Shown here piece by piece: positions 3,997-14,155 of a DNA stretch of 51,055 bases. The notes under the pieces are model-generated. The model worked only from the letters and a program-made list of their open reading frames with translations, searched no databases and was not told the DNA's origin. Source of the stretch: a virus (taxonomy: Duplodnaviria > Caudoviricetes); the IMG/VR virus record IMGVR_UViG_3300024249_000008, positions 1 to 51,055 of that record, one strand, 5' to 3'. Each line of letters starts with the position of its first letter. Position 1 is the stretch's first letter. A program made the translations under genes and the position numbers.

Positions 3997-4354
3997 TTTG
4001 GAGTCCTGGTTATACTCTAGTAAGATGTGCAGGTTTTTTACGGTTATTCTATGACGCGAAAAAGATTTCACCTGCACATCCACCCCAGACAATCTAATTT
4101 TCCACCACAGGGACAATATGTTATACTCTCATTAAGAGTCGATGCCCTAACTAAATCACGAAGACTAAACGAAAACAATTGTCCACAAAACAAAGAACCC
4201 CATTTTACATCGACTCTTTTCCTTTTCATCAATCACTTTCACTTTGAATTTCCATAACATGAAACCTGTGCTATACTTGTGTATGAGATGCCGTTGTGGG
4301 AGTATGGCAGGTGTGATGGTAGATGTATTACGGTATCTGATGATGTGATCTTAC

Positions 4355-4390
4355 AGAGCACGCTTGCTATACTGTCGGCGTGCTCTTTTT
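4355..4390 (+). terminator. intrinsic terminator with an extended -10 (TGCTATACT) in its loop
   Basis: AGAGCACGC...GCGTGCTCT followed by a T-run. Confidence 0.7.
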
Positions 4391-4407
4391 GTTTGTGGTG
4401 ATGATAG

Positions 4408-4674
4408 GTGGTCGTGGTGGTTCAACAACTGGAAAAGTTTGAGCAATTTCATAGAGAGCATCCAGACGTGTATAGGCAGTTTGCTACACTCTGCTATGAG
4501 TTGTGGCAAAGCGATATACGTCATTTTGCCGCTCACTCCATTCTTACGGTGATTCGATTTAACCACGCCCTTGCACATCACAACACTTCACTCAAGATAC
4601 CCGCCCCGTACTCATCGCGCTATGCTGAAATGCTGGTGAAAGAGGATGGACGGTTTTGTGGTTTTTTTAAGTGA
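4408..4674 (+). CDS. conserved phage hypothetical protein
   Basis: FxxFHxxxPxVY...IRF...RYA...GFF pattern recalled from small phage proteins. Confidence 0.6.
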   Translation: MVVVVQQLEKFEQFHREHPDVYRQFATLCYELWQSDIRHFAAHSILTVIRFNHALAHHNTSLKIPAPYSSRYAEMLVKEDGRFCGFFK

Positions 4675-4925
4675 GGAGAGACACGAGACATGACAAGCAG
4701 AAAAGACAATCTTCTAACTGTATTGCTGTGTTGTGTTCCGTTTGTTGTTTCTCCTTTCGTGTCCCTTTCCTTCTTTCTTGTGTGTGGAATGGCAGGTAGA
4801 CGTACAACTACCTGCTTTCCTCTCAGCTAATATCAATGATATGTAATAGATGAATCATGAATAGTCTGAAGCTAAAATATATACAACAGAATAATAAATC
4901 AAGTGGCTTGCAGAGCGGTTTTATA

Positions 4926-5033
4926 TGGACTAAAACACTACAATATGATATAATTGAGGTGTTAAAATTGTTGTGCCATCGCGGTACTGGAAATACCCGA
5001 TGGCGTGAGCGAAACCTTTCAAGGAGGTTTGCT
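4926..5033 (+). promoter_or_regulatory. sigma70-type promoter and structured 5' leader of the HNH gene
   Basis: TGGACT-17-TATAAT with TG extension (4926-4954); hairpin 4975-5004; second hairpin AAACCT/AGGTTT overlapping the AAGGAGG RBS. Confidence 0.75.
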
Positions 5034-6371
5034 ATGGATAATATACCACCTCATGCATTTTTTCAGCAAGAACTACCATTTGATACTTCTCCTCAATTAG
5101 AAAAACAGTGTACAGGACCGTGTAATAGAGTACTTCCAGCAACTAATGAGTTCTTTCATCGATGGGCAGCTAACAAAAAAGATGGATTAAAAAACATCTG
5201 TAAAGAATGTTTGAAGGCTTACTCACGCGAATATAGCAAACGCCCTGGATTCAGAGAGCATGTAAATGAGTATCGGAAAGAACGCTATCATCAGGACACA
5301 GAATTTCGTGAACGATCTCTTGCAACGCAGAAAGAACGCTATCAACGCCCTGAGGTAAAACAAAAAATCCTCGATCAGTGCAAAGAGTATCGCAATCGCC
5401 CTGATATATATGAAAAACGAAGATCATATCAGGAAACTTATCGCAATCGCCCCGAAAACAAAGAAAGAAAACGTGTCTTAAGTCGTCGCCCTGAGTATTT
5501 GGAAAGAAAGCGGGAAGCAGATAGAAAGTATCGCAATCGTCCCGAAGTTAAAGCTAGATTGGCTGCCCACTATAAGGACTATCGAAGTCAACCAGAAGTA
5601 CAAGAGCGCATACGTGCCTATCGTCAGCGTCCAGATGTTCTAGAAAGAGCGCGGGAAAGAAGCAAAAATTATTACCGTGATCCACAAAAACGTCAACAGA
5701 TTTTAGCACGCAATAAAGCCTATCGTGATCGTTTAGGGAGCCGAGAGAAGCGAAACTCTTACTATTATCGCCCGGAGGTCCATCAGCGGATACGTGCTCA
5801 ACAAAAATCTCGTTATCAGCGTCCTGAGGTAAGACAAAAAATCCAATCTCAACAAAAGGAATATCTTAGTAGACCGGAAGTCCGAGAGCGTAAGCATATA
5901 AACGACAAAGCTTATAGTGATGCCTATCGCCAACAGCCTAAAAATCGAGAAAGAAAACAGATTTGGACTCAATCTTATCTAGATCGCCCAGAAATCCAAG
6001 AACAAAGACGTTCTTATGGTAAGGTTTATCGTCAGCGTCCAGACGTTAGGGCAAGGAACAGGGTAAAAGCCTTAACTCGTGCAGCTCGCAAAAAATCTGT
6101 TAAGGGAACTTATACTGCTGCTCAAGTTCAAGAACAATTAAAACGTCAGCATTATCGATGTTATTACGCGGCTTGTGGACACGCCAAATTTAAGAGGGTT
6201 AAAGGTAAGTATGTCTATCATGTCGATCATACGTTTCCATTGAGTCGTGTTGCTGGTAGTGATATCCCTGCCAACGATATGAGTTATCTTGTACTTACAT
6301 GCCCTTACTGCAATACAAGTAAGGGTGATAAATTTCCCTGGGAATGGAACAAAGGTGGAAGATTATTATGA
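5034..6371 (+). CDS. HNH endonuclease with N-terminal Zn finger and about 17 helical repeats
   Basis: AAGGAGG RBS before ATG 5034; CTGPC...CKEC; YRxRPEV repeats; CYYAAC...HVDH...CPYCNTSK. Confidence 0.9.
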   Translation: MDNIPPHAFFQQELPFDTSPQLEKQCTGPCNRVLPATNEFFHRWAANKKDGLKNICKECLKAYSREYSKRPGFREHVNEYRKERYHQDTEFRERSLATQKERYQRPEVKQKILDQCKEYRNRPDIYEKRRSYQETYRNRPENKERKRVLSRRPEYLERKREADRKYRNRPEVKARLAAHYKDYRSQPEVQERIRAYRQRPDVLERARERSKNYYRDPQKRQQILARNKAYRDRLGSREKRNSYYYRPEVHQRIRAQQKSRYQRPEVRQKIQSQQKEYLSRPEVRERKHINDKAYSDAYRQQPKNRERKQIWTQSYLDRPEIQEQRRSYGKVYRQRPDVRARNRVKALTRAARKKSVKGTYTAAQVQEQLKRQHYRCYYAACGHAKFKRVKGKYVYHVDHTFPLSRVAGSDIPANDMSYLVLTCPYCNTSKGDKFPWEWNKGGRLL

Positions 6372-6423
6372 TTGCATATTCTGTCAACCATAGTAATCAA
6401 CTTCCATATTAATGAGGCTATAA

Positions 6424-6828
6424 ATGGGTCGAGGGACCAAACAGAAAGATATAAATAGTAGTGAAAGGGCAGCATTAGCCCTTTCACTACGGAAACAAGG
6501 ACTTACACTAGAGGAGATTGCCCTTAAATGTGGCTACCAAGATAAGTCAGGCGCTTATCGTGCAATTAAGCGATGTCTTGATGAACTGCCTGTGGAAGAC
6601 GCTGTTGAATTACGTAAGATGGAAGTGATGAGGTTGGATGCGCTTTTAGCAGAGTGTTGGGAATTAGCCATGAACAAAGAGTATCGTTCTCGACTATTTG
6701 CAATGGACAGAGTTCTTGCCATAAGTGAAAGACGCGCCCGGCTACTTGGAATCGAGGTTAGCCCTAATGACGCTCCTAGAGGAGCAACGATTGTACGTGA
6801 GTATGGCGCAAATATAGGTGACGTATGA
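6424..6828 (+). CDS. terS: terminase small subunit
   Basis: N-terminal HTH (LTLEEIALKCGY); ERRARLLG motif; ATGA overlap with terL. Confidence 0.8.
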   Translation: MGRGTKQKDINSSERAALALSLRKQGLTLEEIALKCGYQDKSGAYRAIKRCLDELPVEDAVELRKMEVMRLDALLAECWELAMNKEYRSRLFAMDRVLAISERRARLLGIEVSPNDAPRGATIVREYGANIGDV

Positions 6829-9362
6829 TAGACACCTCTGAAGTCATCATTCGCTATAATCCTCGTGGCTCTGCTCGTGATATCTTCAAAATGCGTGATC
6901 CTGAGCTAATTTTGTCAGGGCCAGCCGGGACGGGCAAGAGCAGATCAATTATTGAAAAGCTGCACTTAGCTGCATTAAAGTATCCCAACGCTCGTATTCT
7001 CATGCTTCGTAAGACACGACGCTCATTGACTGAAAGCGGTATGGTTACGTATTGGGAAAAGATACGTCCTGATCTTGATGGTGTCCAGTGGAAGCCTTCA
7101 ATGCAGCAATATCAATACCCTAATGGCGCTATTATTGCGGTTGGTGGACTCGACAAACCATCAAAAATTATGTCGTCAGAGTGGGATATCATCTACTGTC
7201 AAGAATGTACAGAGTTAAATGAAAATGACTGGGAAGCTTGTAAGATACGACTTAGAAACGGGATTTTGCCGTATCAACAATTGCTAGGTGATTGCAATCC
7301 TGATTCATCGCAACACTGGATATTACTGAGAGCCAATGCAGGCCGATTGGTGATGTTGGAGTCAAAACATGAAGACAATCCAGTGTTGTTTAATGAGCAA
7401 GGCAATAGAACGCTTGAAGGTGATCGCTATCTTAGTATACTTGAGTCTCTGACAGGCGTACGACTTGCACGTTATCGGTATGGGATCTGGGCAAGCTCAG
7501 AGGGAATGGTATACCAGAATGAATGGTCAAGGGCCAATAATCTCATAGACCGATTTACCATACCTCGTACATGGGCTAGGTATCTCAGTATCGACATGGG
7601 CTATACAAATCCATTCGTGTGTCAATGGTTCGCTCAGGATGAGGACGGGAGATTATACCGATACAGGGAAATATACAAAACCCAAACGCTTGTAGAAGAT
7701 CATGCAAAACAAATAGCTCTTTCATCTGGTTGGCTTCATCTCTTACCTAAAAATCACCCGAATCATAGAGATAGACCTGCAGAGAATGCTGACCCATTGC
7801 CACGCGCTATTATTGTAGATCACGACCCGGAAGATTATCGGACGCTTGAGCGGTATTTAGGTTTATATACAACGCCTGCAAAAAAATCAGTGAGTGATGG
7901 TATCCAGGCAGTTGCTACGCGCTTACGCCCTGCAGGTGATGGGAAACCTCGACTCTTTTTTTTACGTGACTCCCTAGTTGAACGTGATCAGAATCTAGCT
8001 GCAAGAAAAAAGCCTACTTGTTTTGAGGAAGAAATTGAAAGTTACGTCTTCAAACAGGGAAGTGATGGATCAAAAGAGGAACCTGTAAAAGAAAATGACC
8101 ACGCATGTCTTGTCTCTGGAACGCTTATAACAACCAATCATGGTGATGTGCCAATAGAACATATACGAGCAGGTGATTATGTCCTAACTCGTACTGGATA
8201 TAGAAGAGTCAAGGCTGCTGGAATGACTGCTAGAGATGCAGAAGTTTATACTATGCAACTATCTGATGGTAGAACATTAACAGGTACAGGAAACCATCCT
8301 ATATATCTAAATAAGTGTAAGTATATCCCATTGCATTCTGTAAGTTATGGTGATATAATAGAGGATATCAAACCGTACTTTGACCAGTACACAGAAAGGT
8401 ATCCTCTATTATGCCAAAGTTTACAACAAAAAGAGTTGAGACCGTTGTTTACAAAGGGATTACATTTAGACGCTATCCCCAATCACCTAATTGGTCAGAT
8501 CGAAACTATTATCGTCCAGGTTCTACGGACATTCTGCAAGGGGTTGGTGCACTCCATCAAGAAATCTGGAAAGATGCTTATGGACCTATTCCAGAAGGGT
8601 GCCATATTCACCACAGAGACGAAAATCCGTCAAATAATGACTTGGCAAATCTCGAATGTCTCACTTCTGAAGAGCATTCAAGATACCATGCAGCAAAACT
8701 ATCAGATGAGCAGAGGGAGTGGAAGAGGGCACACATTGAAGAGATACGCCCTCTTGCGTCTGCTTGGCATAAATCAGAAGAAGGTAAAGCATGGCATAAG
8801 GTCATTGGTGCAATGGCTTATGATAATGCAGAGTATAGAACATATACCTGTGAGTATTGCGGAAACGAATTTCAATCACGTGATTTCAGACCAGACCATG
8901 TACGATTTTGCTCAAGCAACTGCAAGGCTTATGCACGCAAGAAGTCGGGTGTGGATGACATTGCGTCCATCTGTGGGCAATGTGGACAGGAATTCATCCA
9001 CAATAAATATGTCAAGGCTAAATTTTGTTCACAGGAATGTTCTCGAAAATCGCGTTACCCTGCCCCAATCTATGAGACGCGGGTATGTCCAATTTGCAAT
9101 GGATCATTTACAGCAAGAGACTATAGCAAGCAGAAATATTGCTCAAGAACCTGCACAAGTCGTAGCCGTCTCTTCAATAAGCAAAAACAATAATCGTCAG
9201 GATGTTTACAATTTGACTGTGGAAGTTGATACCGTTAGTGAAGGTGAGTACTTTGCTAACGGTATCCTTGTGCATAATTGTGATACTACGAGGTACATGG
9301 TTGCACATCTGGATTTGCAACCAAATACAGTTTCGTATTTTCGGGGTGGGATTTGGAAATGA
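6825..9362 (+). CDS. terL: terminase large subunit (PBSX-like) containing an intein; 454 aa after splicing
   Basis: Walker A GPAGTGKS; DCNP; nuclease IDMGYTNP; splicing restores NDHA-CDTTRY (NDHxxDxxRY motif). Confidence 0.95.
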   Translation: MIDTSEVIIRYNPRGSARDIFKMRDPELILSGPAGTGKSRSIIEKLHLAALKYPNARILMLRKTRRSLTESGMVTYWEKIRPDLDGVQWKPSMQQYQYPNGAIIAVGGLDKPSKIMSSEWDIIYCQECTELNENDWEACKIRLRNGILPYQQLLGDCNPDSSQHWILLRANAGRLVMLESKHEDNPVLFNEQGNRTLEGDRYLSILESLTGVRLARYRYGIWASSEGMVYQNEWSRANNLIDRFTIPRTWARYLSIDMGYTNPFVCQWFAQDEDGRLYRYREIYKTQTLVEDHAKQIALSSGWLHLLPKNHPNHRDRPAENADPLPRAIIVDHDPEDYRTLERYLGLYTTPAKKSVSDGIQAVATRLRPAGDGKPRLFFLRDSLVERDQNLAARKKPTCFEEEIESYVFKQGSDGSKEEPVKENDHACLVSGTLITTNHGDVPIEHIRAGDYVLTRTGYRRVKAAGMTARDAEVYTMQLSDGRTLTGTGNHPIYLNKCKYIPLHSVSYGDIIEDIKPYFDQYTERYPLLCQSLQQKELRPLFTKGLHLDAIPNHLIGQIETIIVQVLRTFCKGLVHSIKKSGKMLMDLFQKGAIFTTETKIRQIMTWQISNVSLLKSIQDTMQQNYQMSRGSGRGHTLKRYALLRLLGINQKKVKHGIRSLVQWLMIMQSIEHIPVSIAETNFNHVISDQTMYDFAQATARLMHARSRVWMTLRPSVGNVDRNSSTINMSRLNFVHRNVLENRVTLPQSMRRGYVQFAMDHLQQETIASRNIAQEPAQVVAVSSISKNNNRQDVYNLTVEVDTVSEGEYFANGILVHNCDTTRYMVAHLDLQPNTVSYFRGGIWK
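8331..8412 (+). promoter_or_regulatory. internal promoter and start-masking hairpin for the nested HNH gene
   Basis: TTGCAT (8331-36)-17 bp-TATAAT (8354-59) with TG extension; perfect 13-bp IR ATAATAGAGGATA (8355-67)/TATCCTCTATTAT (8400-12) pairing the AT of the start codon; AGAAAGG RBS. Confidence 0.8.
8411..9193 (+). CDS. HNH homing endonuclease with C-terminal Zn-finger repeats, nested out of frame inside the intein
   Basis: LHQEIW...GPIPEGCHIHHRDENPSNNDLANLECL...EH (HNH_3-type); three CxxC...(F/Y)CSxxC modules; own RBS and promoter. Confidence 0.92.
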   Translation: MPKFTTKRVETVVYKGITFRRYPQSPNWSDRNYYRPGSTDILQGVGALHQEIWKDAYGPIPEGCHIHHRDENPSNNDLANLECLTSEEHSRYHAAKLSDEQREWKRAHIEEIRPLASAWHKSEEGKAWHKVIGAMAYDNAEYRTYTCEYCGNEFQSRDFRPDHVRFCSSNCKAYARKKSGVDDIASICGQCGQEFIHNKYVKAKFCSQECSRKSRYPAPIYETRVCPICNGSFTARDYSKQKYCSRTCTSRSRLFNKQKQ

Positions 9363-9374
9363 GGAGGTGGAACA

Positions 9375-9641
9375 ATGCGACTCTTTGGCATCAAATGTGA
9401 AGTATGCTGTCACAAACACATGCAATCTGGCGATATGTGGAAACACGATAGAAGAATCCCTAATGGTTGGCTGCTTGTCTTTAATGGCGACCCACAAGAG
9501 ACAGAACCATATCATTTTTGCTCGGTTGAATGCTTACATGCATGGACAGAACGATCTATGAAGAGCAATCCAGCGTCAAAGTCATTTGATCCTGACGTGA
9601 TACTTGCAGAACAAATCAAGGTGAAAACAGCACTACTTTAG
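9375..9641 (+). CDS. small Zn-binding hypothetical protein
   Basis: CEVC...FCSVEC; GAGGAGG RBS. Confidence 0.7.
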   Translation: MRLFGIKCEVCCHKHMQSGDMWKHDRRIPNGWLLVFNGDPQETEPYHFCSVECLHAWTERSMKSNPASKSFDPDVILAEQIKVKTALL

Positions 9642-9678
9642 AGCGAATAGAGATAGATAGTAGGGAGGTGGAAGAGGA

Positions 9679-11187
9679 ATGATAGCACCAACGCAGATCA
9701 ACAATAACACTAATCAGTTAACATCAATGACCATAGCATCGCTTGCGCAAGCACCAACACCACAAGTTGATGTTGAGCGTAAGCACAAGATGCATGAAGC
9801 AATGAAAGCCTACGAGGGTGACTTTCCCAAACCTCTCAAAATCTCCCCAAATCAGCCTGACGACAACGCTATTGTTAACAAAATGCGTACTATTGTCGAG
9901 AAGGGCGTAGCATTCTTATTTGGTCCTGAGCTTGGCATCGAAGCAACTGACGAAACAACATCATCAGCTAAAGACTCTCCGATACAAGACTTTGTTGAAG
10001 GTCTTTGGGGTGACAACGATCAGAAAATGACGCTACTTTCAAAGGTTGCGACGAATGGCGGCTTATTTGGTCAGACATTTGTAAAACTCATTCCAGCACA
10101 GTCAACGATGAAATATCCACGTTTGGTTAATCTGAATCCTTGTAACATTCGCATTGTTACCGATCCTGAAGACTGTGATCTTCATATTGCGTATGTGATT
10201 GAGTATCCAAGTGCCAATGACTGGCAAAAGAAGCAGATTATAGCCCGTGTTGATCCTGATGGATTAGCTGACACTACTGGACAGTATGATTTAGACGATA
10301 CCTGGACTATTGCTAATTATGTGCGTAAAGGTCAGGATAGCGCATGGATACAGGCGGGTACTCCTGTAGAGTGGCCTTATCCGTTTGCCCCTATTTTTAC
10401 CTGTCAGAATACCCCACGTCCTAATGATAACTGGGGTGATCCTGATCTTACAGAAAATCTTATCCATCAAAATAAAGTGCTTAACTTTCTGCTGTCTAAT
10501 CTTATTCGTATTGCAAAATATCATGCCCATCCTATCACCTACGCCACAGGTCTTAGCGCCTCACAGATACAGCTTGCTATAGATGATCTTATTTGCCTCC
10601 CATCACCAGAAAGCAAGATCGAAAAGCTAGCAGCAATGGATAACTTTGGCGGAGTGCTCCAAATCATTGCTAATGTGATGAGTAACATAGATGAGTCGTC
10701 ACATGTGCCGGGAGTCGCATTAGGACGACTAACAGACCTTCCTAAAGGTACAATCTCAGGTGTAGCATTACAACTGCTCTTTCAGCCTCTCATAGAGCGT
10801 ACAACGCAGAAGAGGCGATTATATGGCAGCATGATTAGAGACATTACACGAGCTGCTATGGTTGTGTCTAACATCATCCCTGTTGAACAATATGAAGACT
10901 ATCAAATTGATCTCCGGTGGGCTAACTTGCTCCCCATTGACGATTTAGCAGCCGCCCAAACCGCTCAACTGTTGCAAGCAATCGGTGTTTCACAATCAAC
11001 GTTAATGCAGCAATTAGGCTACGATCCTGATAGCGAGTCAGATAAGACAGACCAGGAAAATGCAAAGAAGGCAACAGCGTTTTCTCGTGGGCAAGGGATG
11101 CCTCCATCATTGCCTAACATGCAGCAACCATCACAAGCAATGCAGCAAGATAAGCAAATGGCTCATGAATCAGGGGAGGGACAGTAG
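9679..11187 (+). CDS. portal protein (SPP1 gp6-like)
   Basis: Size and position after terL; SGVALQLLF motif. Confidence 0.88.
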   Translation: MIAPTQINNNTNQLTSMTIASLAQAPTPQVDVERKHKMHEAMKAYEGDFPKPLKISPNQPDDNAIVNKMRTIVEKGVAFLFGPELGIEATDETTSSAKDSPIQDFVEGLWGDNDQKMTLLSKVATNGGLFGQTFVKLIPAQSTMKYPRLVNLNPCNIRIVTDPEDCDLHIAYVIEYPSANDWQKKQIIARVDPDGLADTTGQYDLDDTWTIANYVRKGQDSAWIQAGTPVEWPYPFAPIFTCQNTPRPNDNWGDPDLTENLIHQNKVLNFLLSNLIRIAKYHAHPITYATGLSASQIQLAIDDLICLPSPESKIEKLAAMDNFGGVLQIIANVMSNIDESSHVPGVALGRLTDLPKGTISGVALQLLFQPLIERTTQKRRLYGSMIRDITRAAMVVSNIIPVEQYEDYQIDLRWANLLPIDDLAAAQTAQLLQAIGVSQSTLMQQLGYDPDSESDKTDQENAKKATAFSRGQGMPPSLPNMQQPSQAMQQDKQMAHESGEGQ

Positions 11188-11388
11188 ATGATTATTGAGT
11201 ATCATTGCCCCGTCTGCGAAAACAAACCAACAACTTGCATCCCTATCCTATTCCCACGTAGACCGATCATTGTGCAATGCCCTTTCTGTTGGACAGAGGT
11301 TGAGATTGTTGCACGTCAACAACTAGCTGAGTTGAATGTGAAGGATGTCATGAAAGAAGTTGAAATGATTCTCTCAGGCAACAAGTAA
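11188..11388 (+). CDS. Zn-ribbon hypothetical protein
   Basis: CPVC...CPFC. Confidence 0.65.
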   Translation: MIIEYHCPVCENKPTTCIPILFPRRPIIVQCPFCWTEVEIVARQQLAELNVKDVMKEVEMILSGNK

Positions 11389-11463
11389 CTATAACAATTG
11401 TCAATATAGCATCAAAAATACCGGGTTGAGACAAAATAAACTTCGATGTAATGAGGTAGCGGA

Positions 11464-11937
11464 GTGGAAGAAGAGAAGAAACGTTATTACGGATATGCAC
11501 GCAACTTATTTCAATATGTTCCTCATTGGCATAAGCCAGTTGATGTAAACGCAGCTCATCTACAGAGCTTTACTAGTTTTAATGACAAGATAGCTCTGAC
11601 AGTAACAAGGTGGCTTGGTTCCATGTGGGCGGCGTATTTGTTCCTCTTACTTGCCATACTAGGCTTTCCTGGCTTACATGCTACTTTACCTGTCTATGTC
11701 CAGTGGACTAGTCAAACACTCGTGCAATTGGTTGCATTGGCTGTACTTGGCAATGGACAACAGATCGCAGATAGGCATACTCAACTACGATCTGAGGAAC
11801 AATTCAATTTTATCCAGAAGTCATATGATGACACTGAGCAAATGAAACAGCATCTTTTGAGGATAGAAGCAAAGTTGGGAGGAAGAGACAATGAAGGGCA
11901 AGATCACACCACAAGACCACTACCACCAGCAGCCTAA
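11464..11937 (+). CDS. DUF1003-like membrane protein
   Basis: FNDKIALTVTRWLGSMW, two TM segments, coiled-coil tail. Confidence 0.65.
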   Translation: MEEEKKRYYGYARNLFQYVPHWHKPVDVNAAHLQSFTSFNDKIALTVTRWLGSMWAAYLFLLLAILGFPGLHATLPVYVQWTSQTLVQLVALAVLGNGQQIADRHTQLRSEEQFNFIQKSYDDTEQMKQHLLRIEAKLGGRDNEGQDHTTRPLPPAA

Positions 11938-12352
11938 ACCGATCCTGCATCATGCTATGAGACTCATTCTCGTTTCTTACAACAATCGCAAGAAACACGG
12001 TGCAAAGCCTTTAATCAATAAGAAGGTAGAAGGCGCTATATCATCCAAAGGTGAAGTGGTTCTATTCTCTGAGGAACTACCACAGAAGGGCTATAGAAGC
12101 CTGATCGAGATGAATAATGTTCTGGGAGAATATGGGGATGTTGTAGTTGACTACATCGATAAAGGTACTCAAGACGCAATACCTAATCTCTCATTGCTTA
12201 CTAAGATTGTGTTACGTGATCTTATTCAGGGTGGATTACACGAGCATAAAGTACATGACTTGATTTGGTATTACGCTTCTAAGTATAGAGACGGTGACAC
12301 AGAGCAAGAACTAAAAAATCTGATGGCATGGCTAGAGAGTGAGGAAGCATGA
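11891..12352 (+). CDS. hypothetical protein
   Basis: ORF with RBS in the operon. Confidence 0.6.
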   Translation: MKGKITPQDHYHQQPKPILHHAMRLILVSYNNRKKHGAKPLINKKVEGAISSKGEVVLFSEELPQKGYRSLIEMNNVLGEYGDVVVDYIDKGTQDAIPNLSLLTKIVLRDLIQGGLHEHKVHDLIWYYASKYRDGDTEQELKNLMAWLESEEA

Positions 12353-12540
12353 GCAATTATTTGGATGCAATTATACCTGATGGTACTATGATTTTTCTTG
12401 CTCAACTTTCACCTGAGAACATGCAAGAACTAGAGGCAATGATACGACGTGTTGTGGCTGAAGAGTTGGCAAAAGTGTTGCCAGAGGAAGACCAGGAAGA
12501 AGAGATAGAACCTGAATCGCCATATATTGGGAGAGATTAG
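12349..12540 (+). CDS. hypothetical acidic protein
   Basis: ATGA overlap, GAGG RBS. Confidence 0.6.
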   Translation: MSNYLDAIIPDGTMIFLAQLSPENMQELEAMIRRVVAEELAKVLPEEDQEEEIEPESPYIGRD

Positions 12541-13121
12541 TGAACACACTTTTTGAGCAGTACGACAACATAGAGAAACCAATGAAGAGTAACGAATGGT
12601 ACTCCCCTACTAAGTATGTTGATGCTGCAAGGGAAGTGATGGGGGCAATTGATCTTGATCCAGCTAGTTGTGAGATGGCTAACAGGACAGTTAAGGCTAC
12701 GCGATACTATACACAGGTTGATAATGGATTAATACAGCCTTGGTATGGTCGTGTATGGTGTAATCCTCCATATGGAAAGATATATGGTACTGAAGGAACT
12801 ACTTCATTTGTTTCAAAGCTTATACAAGAATACAAACAAGGAAACATACAACAAGCAATCATTTTAACGATGATGGGTATGTATGCTAATTGGTTTTTCA
12901 GACTATTAGAGTATCACGTTTGTTTCCTAGAAGAGAAACCTATTTTTTATCGTCCAGATGGAACAAATGGAAAACTAGGTTTTGCTGCATGTTGTACCTA
13001 TCTTGGTTCTAATGAGACCAAATTCATCGAAGTCTTCAGCCAATTTGGGCGCATTGCTAAAGCCATAGACATCCCCAAGCCAAAGATAACGCCTCTCAGC
13101 TTATGGGAGGTGTCAGCATGA
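12540..13121 (+). CDS. phage DNA N6-adenine methyltransferase
   Basis: EWYSP, IDLDPAS, VWCNPPYG motifs. Confidence 0.88.
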   Translation: MNTLFEQYDNIEKPMKSNEWYSPTKYVDAAREVMGAIDLDPASCEMANRTVKATRYYTQVDNGLIQPWYGRVWCNPPYGKIYGTEGTTSFVSKLIQEYKQGNIQQAIILTMMGMYANWFFRLLEYHVCFLEEKPIFYRPDGTNGKLGFAACCTYLGSNETKFIEVFSQFGRIAKAIDIPKPKITPLSLWEVSA

Positions 13122-14155
13122 GTCGTATTCAAGCAATCACCCAACAGTACAGAAAACAACTACTAGCACGTGAGGCTCAAGCAGTCAAAACGCTAGAGGC
13201 TTCGTACGCTCACACACTGGCAACCATTCAACCACAACTAGACAAGTTGTACAAAGAGATTGCAGACAAACAAGCCAATGGTGAGACTGTACCGCTATCT
13301 TATCTCTATGAGCAGCGAAGGCTTCAAGCACTCAAGGCATTTATCACAAAACAAATCAATCAATATGCAATGCTAGGTTTGACGCAGACAGGACAACTAC
13401 AACACGTAGGAGCAATGCTAGGGCAGCAATCAGCACAAGCCATGTTACAAGCATCCAAACCACCTTCTATTAAATATTCTTTCGGTGTACCTAGTCCAGA
13501 GGCAATTACTAACATGGTTGGTGTAACTCAGTCTGGAAGTCCATTATCTGATCTGTTCAATGGATTTGGTGAAGAAGCTGCTAATGGTGCTAGCAAGGCA
13601 CTGATAACAGGGGTATCACTTGGCTGGAATCCACGTAGGATAGCGCCACAGATAGAGCAGGCGCTAGGAGTGTCACGCAATAGAGCATTAGTGATTTCGA
13701 GGACTGAATGCTTACGAGCATACAGATCAATGCAATTCGCTAATTATCAAGCAAACAGTGATGTACTCGATGGATGGGTTTGGGTTTGTGCATTGACAAA
13801 GAATTCATGTGCTGCATGTGTGGCAATGCATGGAAGCCAGCATCCATTATCGGAGGAACTTCAAGATCATCCCTGTGGACGCTGTGCTGCTGTTCCATTG
13901 ACTAAATCATGGTCAGATATCCTCGGTCCATTAGGAGTCAACACTGATAGCATACCAGATACTAGTATCAATATACCTAGTGGATCTGATTGGTTTGATA
14001 ACCAGGATGAGGATACACAAAAGGCGATATTAGGGAACAAGTATCAGGCATTCAAAAATGGTGATTTTGATTTATCCGATGTGATCCATGTTCACAATGA
14101 TCCCGATTGGGGTAAATCTATAAGTGAAAAGCCACTCAAGGCATTAGTAAAATAA
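13118..14155 (+). CDS. MuF/SPP1 gp7-like minor head protein
   Basis: RALVISRTE, CAACVAMHG, HPCGRC motifs. Confidence 0.88.
   Translation: MSRIQAITQQYRKQLLAREAQAVKTLEASYAHTLATIQPQLDKLYKEIADKQANGETVPLSYLYEQRRLQALKAFITKQINQYAMLGLTQTGQLQHVGAMLGQQSAQAMLQASKPPSIKYSFGVPSPEAITNMVGVTQSGSPLSDLFNGFGEEAANGASKALITGVSLGWNPRRIAPQIEQALGVSRNRALVISRTECLRAYRSMQFANYQANSDVLDGWVWVCALTKNSCAACVAMHGSQHPLSEELQDHPCGRCAAVPLTKSWSDILGPLGVNTDSIPDTSINIPSGSDWFDNQDEDTQKAILGNKYQAFKNGDFDLSDVIHVHNDPDWGKSISEKPLKALVK

Follow-up and report, generated by a model that had tools for sequence, protein, structure and literature searches.

A candidate promoter and start-masking hairpin written through terL intein codons ahead of an out-of-frame HNH_3 nuclease gene in a viral genome

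Introduction

How a homing endonuclease can be expressed when its gene is buried, out of frame, in the codons of an intein that itself interrupts an essential phage gene is the question raised by IMG/VR record IMGVR_UViG_3300024249_000008, a whole virus record of 51,055 nucleotides (nt; estimated completeness 91%, GC content 42.7%), whose full length is called the window here. Its large terminase gene, terL, carries an intein, and the intein codons carry in turn, in the -1 frame, an open reading frame (ORF) for an HNH_3 homing-endonuclease-like protein (hereafter the nuclease). Upstream of the nuclease start codon, and still within intein codons, lie a promoter motif and a long inverted repeat. 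Together they probably serve to express a mobile HNH_3 homing-endonuclease gene, as a module overprinted on the terL intein, with the nuclease made mainly from a transcript of its own.

Out-of-frame and antisense intein endonucleases were described only in 2025-2026, and in the accessible portions of that literature the fullest account of their expression is a suggested leaderless initiation. The locus described here, together with its relatives, offers a concrete and testable expression mechanism that reuses the logic of the T4 intron endonucleases. That regulatory logic is already known; what is new is a candidate host-type promoter, overprinted on contiguous intein codons, that would serve an out-of-frame HNH_3 gene. 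Should the nuclease gene also travel with these elements as one self-contained cassette, this would provide a general answer to how 'hidden' intein endonucleases are expressed, and the arrangements found among relatives would represent living intermediates in the origin of bifunctional inteins.

Results and discussion

The terL intein and its nested nuclease

Phage large terminases align to the terL product at residues 1-427 only (protein search), and the intein splicing blocks CLVSG..., TGNH and ...VHN followed by C are all found in the terL frame (Table 1). In a Pfam scan of the intein, Hint_2 scored above its cut-off and Intein_splicing below its own. The terL frame of the window is continuous, not broken into two ORFs as in fractured genes, and the essential role of TerL leads us to expect both protein splicing and homing activity. 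The nested ORF matches HNH_3 (PF13392) at residues 48-91 with 59.5 bits against a cut-off of 24.8 (E 2.5e-16), and the terL frame contains 0 stops across it, whereas synonymous-codon shuffles of the nuclease average 2.9 stops in that frame and only 0.96% of 5000 shuffles reach 0. Both results bear out the initial annotation, which had held the nested ORF to be real. Compared with the related locus L002, the same DNA is ~50% identical when read in the nuclease frame and ~27% when read in the intein frame; the nuclease frame is therefore the constrained one. Since the nuclease ORF lies wholly within terL, it is carried on the host-gene transcript, and a scan of positions 4000-14000 of the window found no terminator-like site on the + strand. 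A sequence search of the PDB with the HNH protein gave 0 matches, and scans of a genome collection with the HNH protein and with the TerL N-extein found no relative.

A -1 frameshift from terL into the nuclease frame was considered as a route of expression and rejected. The nuclease frame holds a TGA at 8381-8383, between the 5' arm of the hairpin and the ATG, no X XXY YYZ heptamer was seen in 8384-8410, and relatives have Shine-Dalgarno sequences and start codons of their own.

Table 1. Positions of the terL intein, the nested nuclease and the predicted expression elements in the window.
Feature	Position	Strand	Remarks
terL ORF, 845 aa	6825-9362	+	Terminase_3, Terminase_6N and Hint_2 matches; carries intein
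Intein in terL frame, Cys428-Asn818	8106-9278	+	TGNH block, long linker, C-terminal ...GILVHN; Cys+1 at 9279-9281
HNH_3 homing-endonuclease-like ORF, 260 aa	8411-9193	+	-1 frame relative to terL; between N- and C-terminal splicing parts
-35-like hexamer TTGCAT	8331-8336	+	In Leu-His codons; 3/6 to TTGACA (TTG only)
Extended -10, TGATATAAT	8351-8359	+	In G-D-I-I codons; TATAAT at 8354-8359, 6/6, preceded by TGA
Predicted transcription start (~8366)	8365-8368	+	6-9 nt past -10; putative
Whole predicted RNA structure on read-through RNA	8340-8424	+	Minimum free energy -29.7 kcal/mol, z -5.34
5' arm of main 15-bp stem	8355-8369	+	Overlaps -10 and discriminator
3' arm of main stem	8398-8412	+	Covers spacer and AU of AUG
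Inner 5-bp stem-loop	8375-8390	+	GTACT (8375-8379) / AGTAC (8386-8390), within main-stem loop
Shine-Dalgarno-like GAAAGG	8394-8399	+	Last two G pair with 5' arm
Nuclease ATG	8411-8413	+	AU paired in main stem

A promoter motif in intein codons

The codons for L-H-S-V-S-Y-G-D-I-I at 8331-8359 spell TTGCAT, a 17-nt spacer and TATAAT, just as the initial annotation had reported. The strong promoter feature here is the perfect extended -10, not the -35. Across the window, TGNTATAAT occurs 6 times against 2.9 expected, and TTGNNN followed after 16-18 nt by TGNTATAAT occurs twice against 0.21 (300 shuffles). Within one genome such a motif is only suggestive, and the weight of a putative promoter comes from the comparison with relatives given below. 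Given the residues G-D-I-I, the spelling GGT GAT ATA ATA has a probability of ~0.017 under the codon usage of the phage.

An identical TGATATAAT (at 4946), with a TGGACT -35 and a 17-nt spacer, stands at 4926-4954 ahead of the packaging genes. Because the same 9-mer heads the packaging operon, the phage plausibly uses promoters of this kind. Positions 4926-4954 fall within the 5' end of the longest reading of ORF 4857-6371, where a downstream ATG (MDNIPP...) after AAGGAG looks like the real start; were it so, 4926-4954 would be the packaging-operon promoter. Repeats of a YR-x-RPEV-like kind are numerous in that ORF, and its C-terminal part matches HNH weakly (E 8.5e-4), under the cut-off.

A hairpin from the -10 region to the start codon

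Read-through RNA is predicted to fold over the nuclease start into a structure (8340-8424) that 0 of 200 shuffles equalled. The perfect 13-nt inverted repeat of the initial annotation (8355-8367/8400-8412) and the inner GTACT/AGTAC stem are both present, as is the extension by U8368-G8399 and C8369-G8398 that brings the stem to 15 bp and into the GG of GAAAGG (5' arm AGAGGATATC; 3' arm GGTATCCTCT). The fold is in fact bigger than was first described, with outer helices at 8340-8346/8418-8424 and 8348-8351/8413-8416. Under a uniform-base approximation, 51 kb should contain ~0.06 perfect 13-nt inverted repeats with both arms inside 80 nt; perfect inverted repeats of at least 13 nt number 7 in the whole window. 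The GAAAGG stands 11 nt from the ATG, a rather far spacing. An Rfam scan returned nothing relevant, its sole match being SNORD22 at E 0.89, far under the gathering score. A terminator role for the hairpin was rejected, as there is no U-tract past the stem and the site is unlisted in the terminator scan.

Transcription from sigma-70 promoters starts, as a rule of thumb, ~6-9 nt downstream of the -10. The 5' arm does overlap the -10, as had been proposed, and an RNA begun at that predicted distance would keep at most 5 nt of the arm. We expressed the consequence for translation as an opening cost, the free energy required to make positions -15 to +6 relative to the start single-stranded, computed for a read-through RNA (-80 to +25) and for an RNA begun 7 nt after the -10. 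In the window, opening the start costs 18.3 kcal/mol on the read-through RNA versus 4.1 kcal/mol on the RNA from the predicted start.

On the reading that we favour, a host-type (sigma-70/sigma-A) extended -10 promoter in the intein codons L-H-x5-G-D-I-I would start RNA at ~8366. On terL mRNA, the -10 and discriminator (8355-8369) would pair with the spacer and AUG (8398-8412), the outer helices would clamp the stem, and an opening cost of ~18 kcal/mol would strongly disfavour internal initiation. RNA from the internal promoter, being free of the 5' arm, would need ~4 kcal/mol to open and would leave GAAAGG-N11-AUG exposed. The nuclease would thus come mainly from its own transcript, and terL translation would go undisturbed by out-of-frame ribosome starts. 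Because the hairpin lies inside the terL ORF, any mRNA able to make TerL contains the whole of it. The predicted internal promoter would also let the terL region be transcribed independently of the late operon. Promoter activity, start point and translational effect are what we infer here, from sequence elements and a recurrence in relatives that are themselves observed and from energies computed in silico.

Homologous loci and their arrangements

Relatives of the nuclease (numbered with the prefix L) were gathered from viral contigs and metagenome contigs, and loci identical over 116 nt around the start were collapsed before counting, which gave 50 unique loci including the window. We dropped L014 and L046 as one-base variants of L012 and L045, L017/L018 (= L092/L093) as having the HNH in frame within a 2-kb ORF and an ambiguous start, L038, L057 and L067 as cut at the 5' end by the contig end, and L072, L073, L078 and L090 as re-fetched contigs. 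A locus was counted as nested when the host frame stays free of stops from >200 nt ahead of the nuclease start until past the nuclease stop. This layout, with the nuclease in the -1 frame of the open host frame, is found in 28 of the 50 loci, in most of which N- and C-intein matches flank the nuclease.

The 22 loci that are not nested fall into three main contexts. In the first, the nuclease follows immediately after the terL stop (L006, L008, L009, L043, L068, L079-82), and these free-standing genes lie ~80-100 nt from the codons of a conserved DH-x-ID-x-x-RY motif. The same motif is the intein insertion site of the window, which suggests that the nuclease family targets that site. In the second, a split intein lies in a fractured terL (L083-85, L044, L089), the order being an ORF of N-extein and N-intein with its stop, the HNH gene, and a small Met-started ORF of C-intein and C-extein; here the C-intein is ~35 aa long and ends HN|C or HN|S (L083, L084, L085, L044, L089). 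In the third (L003 and L034), the nuclease follows an intein-less terL and lies inside an intein remnant (2858-3732 in L003, on the same contig as L035-37 and L072; about 1-1133 in L034). Besides the HNH gene with its promoter motif and hairpin, the remnant holds the last N-domain intein codons (which read LRAMRYCDIM), a degenerate C-intein and a duplicate C-extein, and no stop interrupts the former intein frame for 822 nt in L003 and for 864 nt in L034. The remnant resembles the product of a partial duplication or of recombination between intein-plus and intein-minus alleles. Among terL relatives, L025, L027, L028 and L032 have no intein at this site, and L029-31 have a mini-intein of 137 aa there but lack the nuclease.

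The element is thus found at the one terL site as a free-standing gene after terL, between the halves of a split intein, and out of frame within a contiguous intein. These three arrangements correspond to proposed steps by which inteins acquire endonucleases. It is an evenly balanced proposition that the HNH_3 gene travels as a self-contained cassette, comprising the ORF, a promoter of host type and a stem that masks the start and is built from the -10/discriminator sequence (replaced in some relatives by an ATG placed 4-6 nt past the -10), and occupies this terL site at every stage of the proposed pathway. At the overprinted stage, one stretch of DNA would then serve as intein residues, promoter, RNA switch and nuclease.

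In the dropped pair L017/L018 (= L092/L093; about 1573-3613 in L017), the 2-kb ORF that holds the HNH homologue in frame has a terminase-like start; it may represent a fusion or else an HNH intein of the canonical, in-frame kind.

The promoter motif in relatives

Of the 50 loci, 18 (8 nested and 10 not nested) have the motif TGNTATAAT at a distance of 10-75 nt ahead of the nuclease start. The first 33 loci had 11 such sites, where the background frequency in their DNA predicts 0.12; the Poisson probability of this enrichment, 1.5e-18, overstates independence because the loci are related. By inspection, 5 of the 10 non-nested motif loci lie after a terL stop, 3 after the stop of an N-intein ORF and 2 beside an intein remnant; as these 10 of 18 are outside a contiguous intein, constraint on the intein protein cannot explain the motif there. 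Nested loci spell the 9-mer by G/S/C-D-I-I, with ATA ATA for both isoleucines. Read by eye, TTGNNN occurs in relatives at a spacing of 16-17 nt; the -35 is better than that of the window in several of the non-nested loci, namely L080/81 (TAGACA-17) and L083 (TTGACC-17), and L034 has the identical TTGCAT-17. The mini-intein serves as a control, albeit a single lineage of three near-identical contigs (a further scan returned the same three): at the same positions it reads CTGATA...GGTGATCTTCTG, with GATCTT at the place of the -10, and thus has neither hexamer.

In five loci (L039, L041, L042, L068, L085) the ATG falls 4-6 nt past the -10, which leaves no room for a Shine-Dalgarno sequence. To judge from its spacing, this layout implies a probable leaderless translation of the nuclease, and it makes sense only if the -10 is used.

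These data bear on coincidence as an alternative, in which G-D-I-I codons in DNA of 43% GC happen to spell the promoter-like motif and the repeat is functionless. It can draw on the roughly twofold enrichment of TGNTATAAT throughout the window (6 vs 2.9), on the weak -35, and on the fact that GD followed by two hydrophobic residues is common in Hint domains (GDLL in L029). Already disfavoured by the recurrence of the motif without a contiguous intein and by the codon-choice probability of 0.017, coincidence also has to account for a fold with z -5.3 and for a perfect 13-nt repeat expected ~0.06 times per window, and we regard it as very improbable. The codon odds, the recurrence outside contiguous inteins and the mini-intein control all argue that the candidate promoter is not merely a by-product of the GDII codons.

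Start-site pairing in relatives

Folding of the homologues, a check that the initial annotation had proposed, found start-pairing stems in several relatives in addition to that of the window (z -5.34). Large differences between the two RNAs recur in L034 (18.5 kcal/mol on read-through RNA and 3.7 from the predicted start), L083 (15.1 and 3.7), L004 (14.4 and 2.5), L008 (12.1 and 2.1), L042 (11.9 and 0.3), L003 (11.4 and 3.4) and L082 (11.1 and 1.7). Over the 18 motif-bearing loci, the median is 10.8 kcal/mol on read-through RNA and 2.3 from the predicted start, and 171 other ORF starts of the same loci give a background median of 5.7 kcal/mol, with 95th and 99th percentiles of 11.1 and 12.6. 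The background 95th percentile is exceeded by 8 of the 18 loci with the motif vs 5 of the 32 without it, and opening the start is costlier with the motif than without (median 10.8 vs 6.9 kcal/mol, Mann-Whitney p 0.0035). In three of the five leaderless-type loci, too, read-through RNA is predicted to pair the ATG strongly with sequence that precedes it.

The strong stems (window, L034, L003, L008, L082 and L083) have unrelated arm sequences, yet all join the -10 region to the start codon. The arms read 5' ACAGACAACT and 3' AGTTGTCTGT in L034, 5' GCAGATA-C and 3' G-TATCTGC in L003, 5' ATATGGATATC and 3' GATATCCATAT in L083, and 5' ATAATATCA and 3' TGATATTAT in L082. These four and the window share one geometry: the 5' arm starts within the -10 or directly behind it and reaches no further than ~10 nt from it, the 3' arm terminates on the AU of the start codon, and the Shine-Dalgarno sequence lies in the loop or, in the window, partly in the stem. 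In L002 and L004, the 5' arm precedes the -10 and the promoter lies inside the stem.

This geometry speaks to a second possibility, in which the promoter is real and the inverted repeat is a DNA operator over the -10 for a repressor or for the nuclease itself, an arrangement that could coexist with RNA masking. The repeat does overlap the -10, and T4 I-TevI binds an operator over its own late promoter, according to the accessible text of PMC2988022. Yet close relatives differ in the sequence, length and register of the arms and in the size of the loop (4 to 28 nt), as would not be expected of a site bound by protein, the 3' arm invariably terminates on the start codon, a property of the RNA level, and the promoter region resembles the flanks of the extein junction no more than random 40-mers do; we consider an operator quite improbable. 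Rather improbable, likewise, is a real promoter accompanied by a hairpin with some other role on the long transcript, be it in RNA processing, in stability or in a pause while the intein N-domain folds co-translationally. A second strong hairpin after the nuclease stop (9228-9266) would agree with a region that holds several RNA structures, but cleavage within terL mRNA would destroy the message for an essential protein, and what stays constant across relatives is the pairing of the start codon itself.

Translational coupling, in which terL ribosomes open the hairpin gate to give a low output of nuclease from terL mRNA while the promoter-like motif goes unused, is a further alternative. In the window, the 5' arm (8355-8369), which is separated from the 3' arm by 28 nt, belongs to the translated terL frame, so that a ribosome on it would free the start. 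Coupling of the coat/replicase kind in RNA phages of the MS2 type provides a precedent. In L034, L003, L008 and L080-L083, however, promoter motif and hairpin lie downstream of the stop of terL or of the N-intein ORF, where no ribosome passes, and loops in those free-standing relatives span only 4-10 nt. Hairpins placed beyond an upstream stop codon argue against coupling as their general function, and coupling leaves both the conserved TGNTATAAT and the leaderless-type layouts unexplained. We therefore hold coupling to be unlikely, and expression from an own transcript remains the reading that we prefer.

Several observations weigh against that preferred reading. The -35 of the window shares just 3 of its 6 bases with TTGACA, and for that reason the consensus promoter scan left the site unlisted. 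The TGATATAAT of the packaging operon is the same as that ahead of the nuclease, and no T4-like temporal switch is evident. Silence of the nuclease on terL mRNA, which the initial annotation had put forward, is something we infer, and terL ribosomes would melt the hairpin at each pass; because the 5' arm lies in the translated terL frame, masking can only be partial. The short RNA, for its part, still folds a weak 5-bp GGUAU/AUGCC stem over the start. As for the relatives, 32 of the 50 homologous loci are without TGNTATAAT, among them 20 of the 28 nested loci (e.g. L005, L010, L012, L016, L020, L021), five of which (L010, L012, L016, L020, L021) show by eye a TAnnTT hexamer (TATATT, TAACTT, TAGCTT) ~46 nt before the ATG. 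Ten of the 18 motif-bearing loci have opening costs within the background 95th percentile, with ordinary values in L055 (2.3), L041 (5.5), L079 (5.8), L013 (6.5) and L068 (7.3 kcal/mol), and the relatedness of the loci makes both the enrichment and the rank tests overstate independence. For covariation across homologues, a further check named in the initial annotation, RNAalifold gave 0 consensus pairs on MAFFT alignments of the -10-to-ATG segments, because the position of the stem between -10 and ATG shifts among lineages, with at least three registers in use. Per-sequence fold statistics are reported here in place of a covariation statistic.

Comparison with known systems

The initial annotation pointed to T4 homing endonuclease genes such as I-TevI as a precedent for a promoter within a hairpin, and the accessible text of PMC2988022 says as much. 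There, I-TevI, I-TevII, I-TevIII and segB are described as having a late promoter inside a hairpin that sequesters the ribosome-binding site, a logic demonstrated experimentally in T4 and Aeh1. As in the I-Tev genes, the endonuclease of the window is embedded in a host gene, the predicted hairpin of the long transcript would hide the initiation region, and an adjacent upstream promoter would yield RNA too short to form it (PMC2988022, same portions). The host element differs, being an intein and not a group I intron, so that the masked region is translated in another frame. The promoter differs as well: unlike the T4 late element TATAAATA, that predicted for the window is of sigma-70 type with an extended -10. 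A distinct, later temporal class of promoter, which is a feature of T4, does not separate the nuclease of the window from the packaging genes, since the same 9-mer recurs with the TGGACT -35 at 4926-4954; for this reason we describe the locus as working like the T4 family and do not call it a member.

Aeh1 mobE resembles the window in being an HNH-type endonuclease in a host gene, co-transcribed with it and with a hairpin over the ribosome-binding site (accessible parts of PMC2988022 and PMC2677866). It splits nrdA into two ORFs, whereas the host frame of the window is open and the intein would restore the protein. In the fractured genes of Dassa et al. 2009, as far as the available text goes, hairpins lie upstream of the start in 15 of 16 endonuclease 5' untranslated regions, and the late-promoter element TATAAATA in 10 of those leaders (PMC2677866). 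The fractured terL loci L083-85, L044 and L089 are of the same type, here with HNH_3. The endonucleases of that study are GIY-YIG and Vsr-like, with the element TATAAATA (PMC2677866, in the text available), as against a contiguous intein, an overprinted nuclease and TGATATAAT in the window.

Non-canonical inteins with an out-of-frame or antisense homing endonuclease have been reported by Gosselin et al. (10.1101/2025.01.02.630785) and for a cyanobacterial dnaX intein (10.64898/2026.09.14.751524). In the portions of both preprints available to us, the endonuclease ORF lies between the splicing blocks in another frame, as in the window, and the terminase large subunit is among the hosts; their out-of-frame type is endonuclease VII-like, or LAGLIDADG in dnaX, and their HNH cases are in frame. 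The origin proposed there is invasion of an intein by a free-standing endonuclease (10.1101/2025.01.02.630785; 10.64898/2026.09.14.751524), and the latter preprint includes, in the part accessible, a remark on Shine-Dalgarno motifs. ShiLan offers a further parallel, a hidden out-of-frame HNH in a mycobacteriophage methylase ORF that stays open, whose authors raise the question of its translation and suggest leaderless initiation (PMC11855218, accessible text). Unlike the window, with its concrete promoter motif, that case has no intein, promoter or RNA structure in the text available (PMC11855218). The word 'promoter' occurs 0 times in 10.1101/2025.01.02.630785, 10.64898/2026.09.14.751524 and PMC11855218, and 'hairpin' occurs 0 times in both preprints and once, in the protein sense, in PMC11855218. 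A full-text literature search combining intein and homing endonuclease with hairpin, ribosome-binding site and promoter found no description of the present arrangement.

Cultured phages and other features of the region

Gene callers miss the nuclease, which lies unannotated inside terL in the records of Tetrasphaera phage TJE1 (L095), Acinetobacter phage Highwayman (L096) and Clostridium phage phiCDHM19 (L098). The loci of TJE1, Highwayman, BP10 and phiCDHM19 stand outside the 50-locus statistic. In TJE1 (58% GC), nothing clear was seen at the position of the promoter and hairpin. In Highwayman, the stem that contains a TATAAT also engages the Shine-Dalgarno sequence, and opening the start costs 15.0 kcal/mol. 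In phiCDHM19, a perfect TTGACA-17-TATAAT runs through ...S-I-I... codons of the terL intein, and a stem ties the -10 to the GTG start (z -3.3), with an opening cost of 10.2 kcal/mol on read-through RNA vs 6.3 from the predicted start. The record of phi CD119 (L099) has terL split into ter1 and ter2, with the nuclease region given as ORF3, a hypothetical protein.

The strong hairpin at 9228-9266 begins 35 nt past the HNH stop and has 16-nt arms of 88% complementarity and a 7-nt loop. It is written in C-terminal intein codons (..TVSEGEYFANGI..), and L002 and L039 have similar inverted repeats of other sequence at the same place. Elsewhere in the window, a perfect 13-bp inverted repeat with a 7-nt loop occupies 6458-6490, at the 5' end of a small-terminase-like ORF (6424-6828), and is listed by the terminator scan as a minus-strand terminator-like site.

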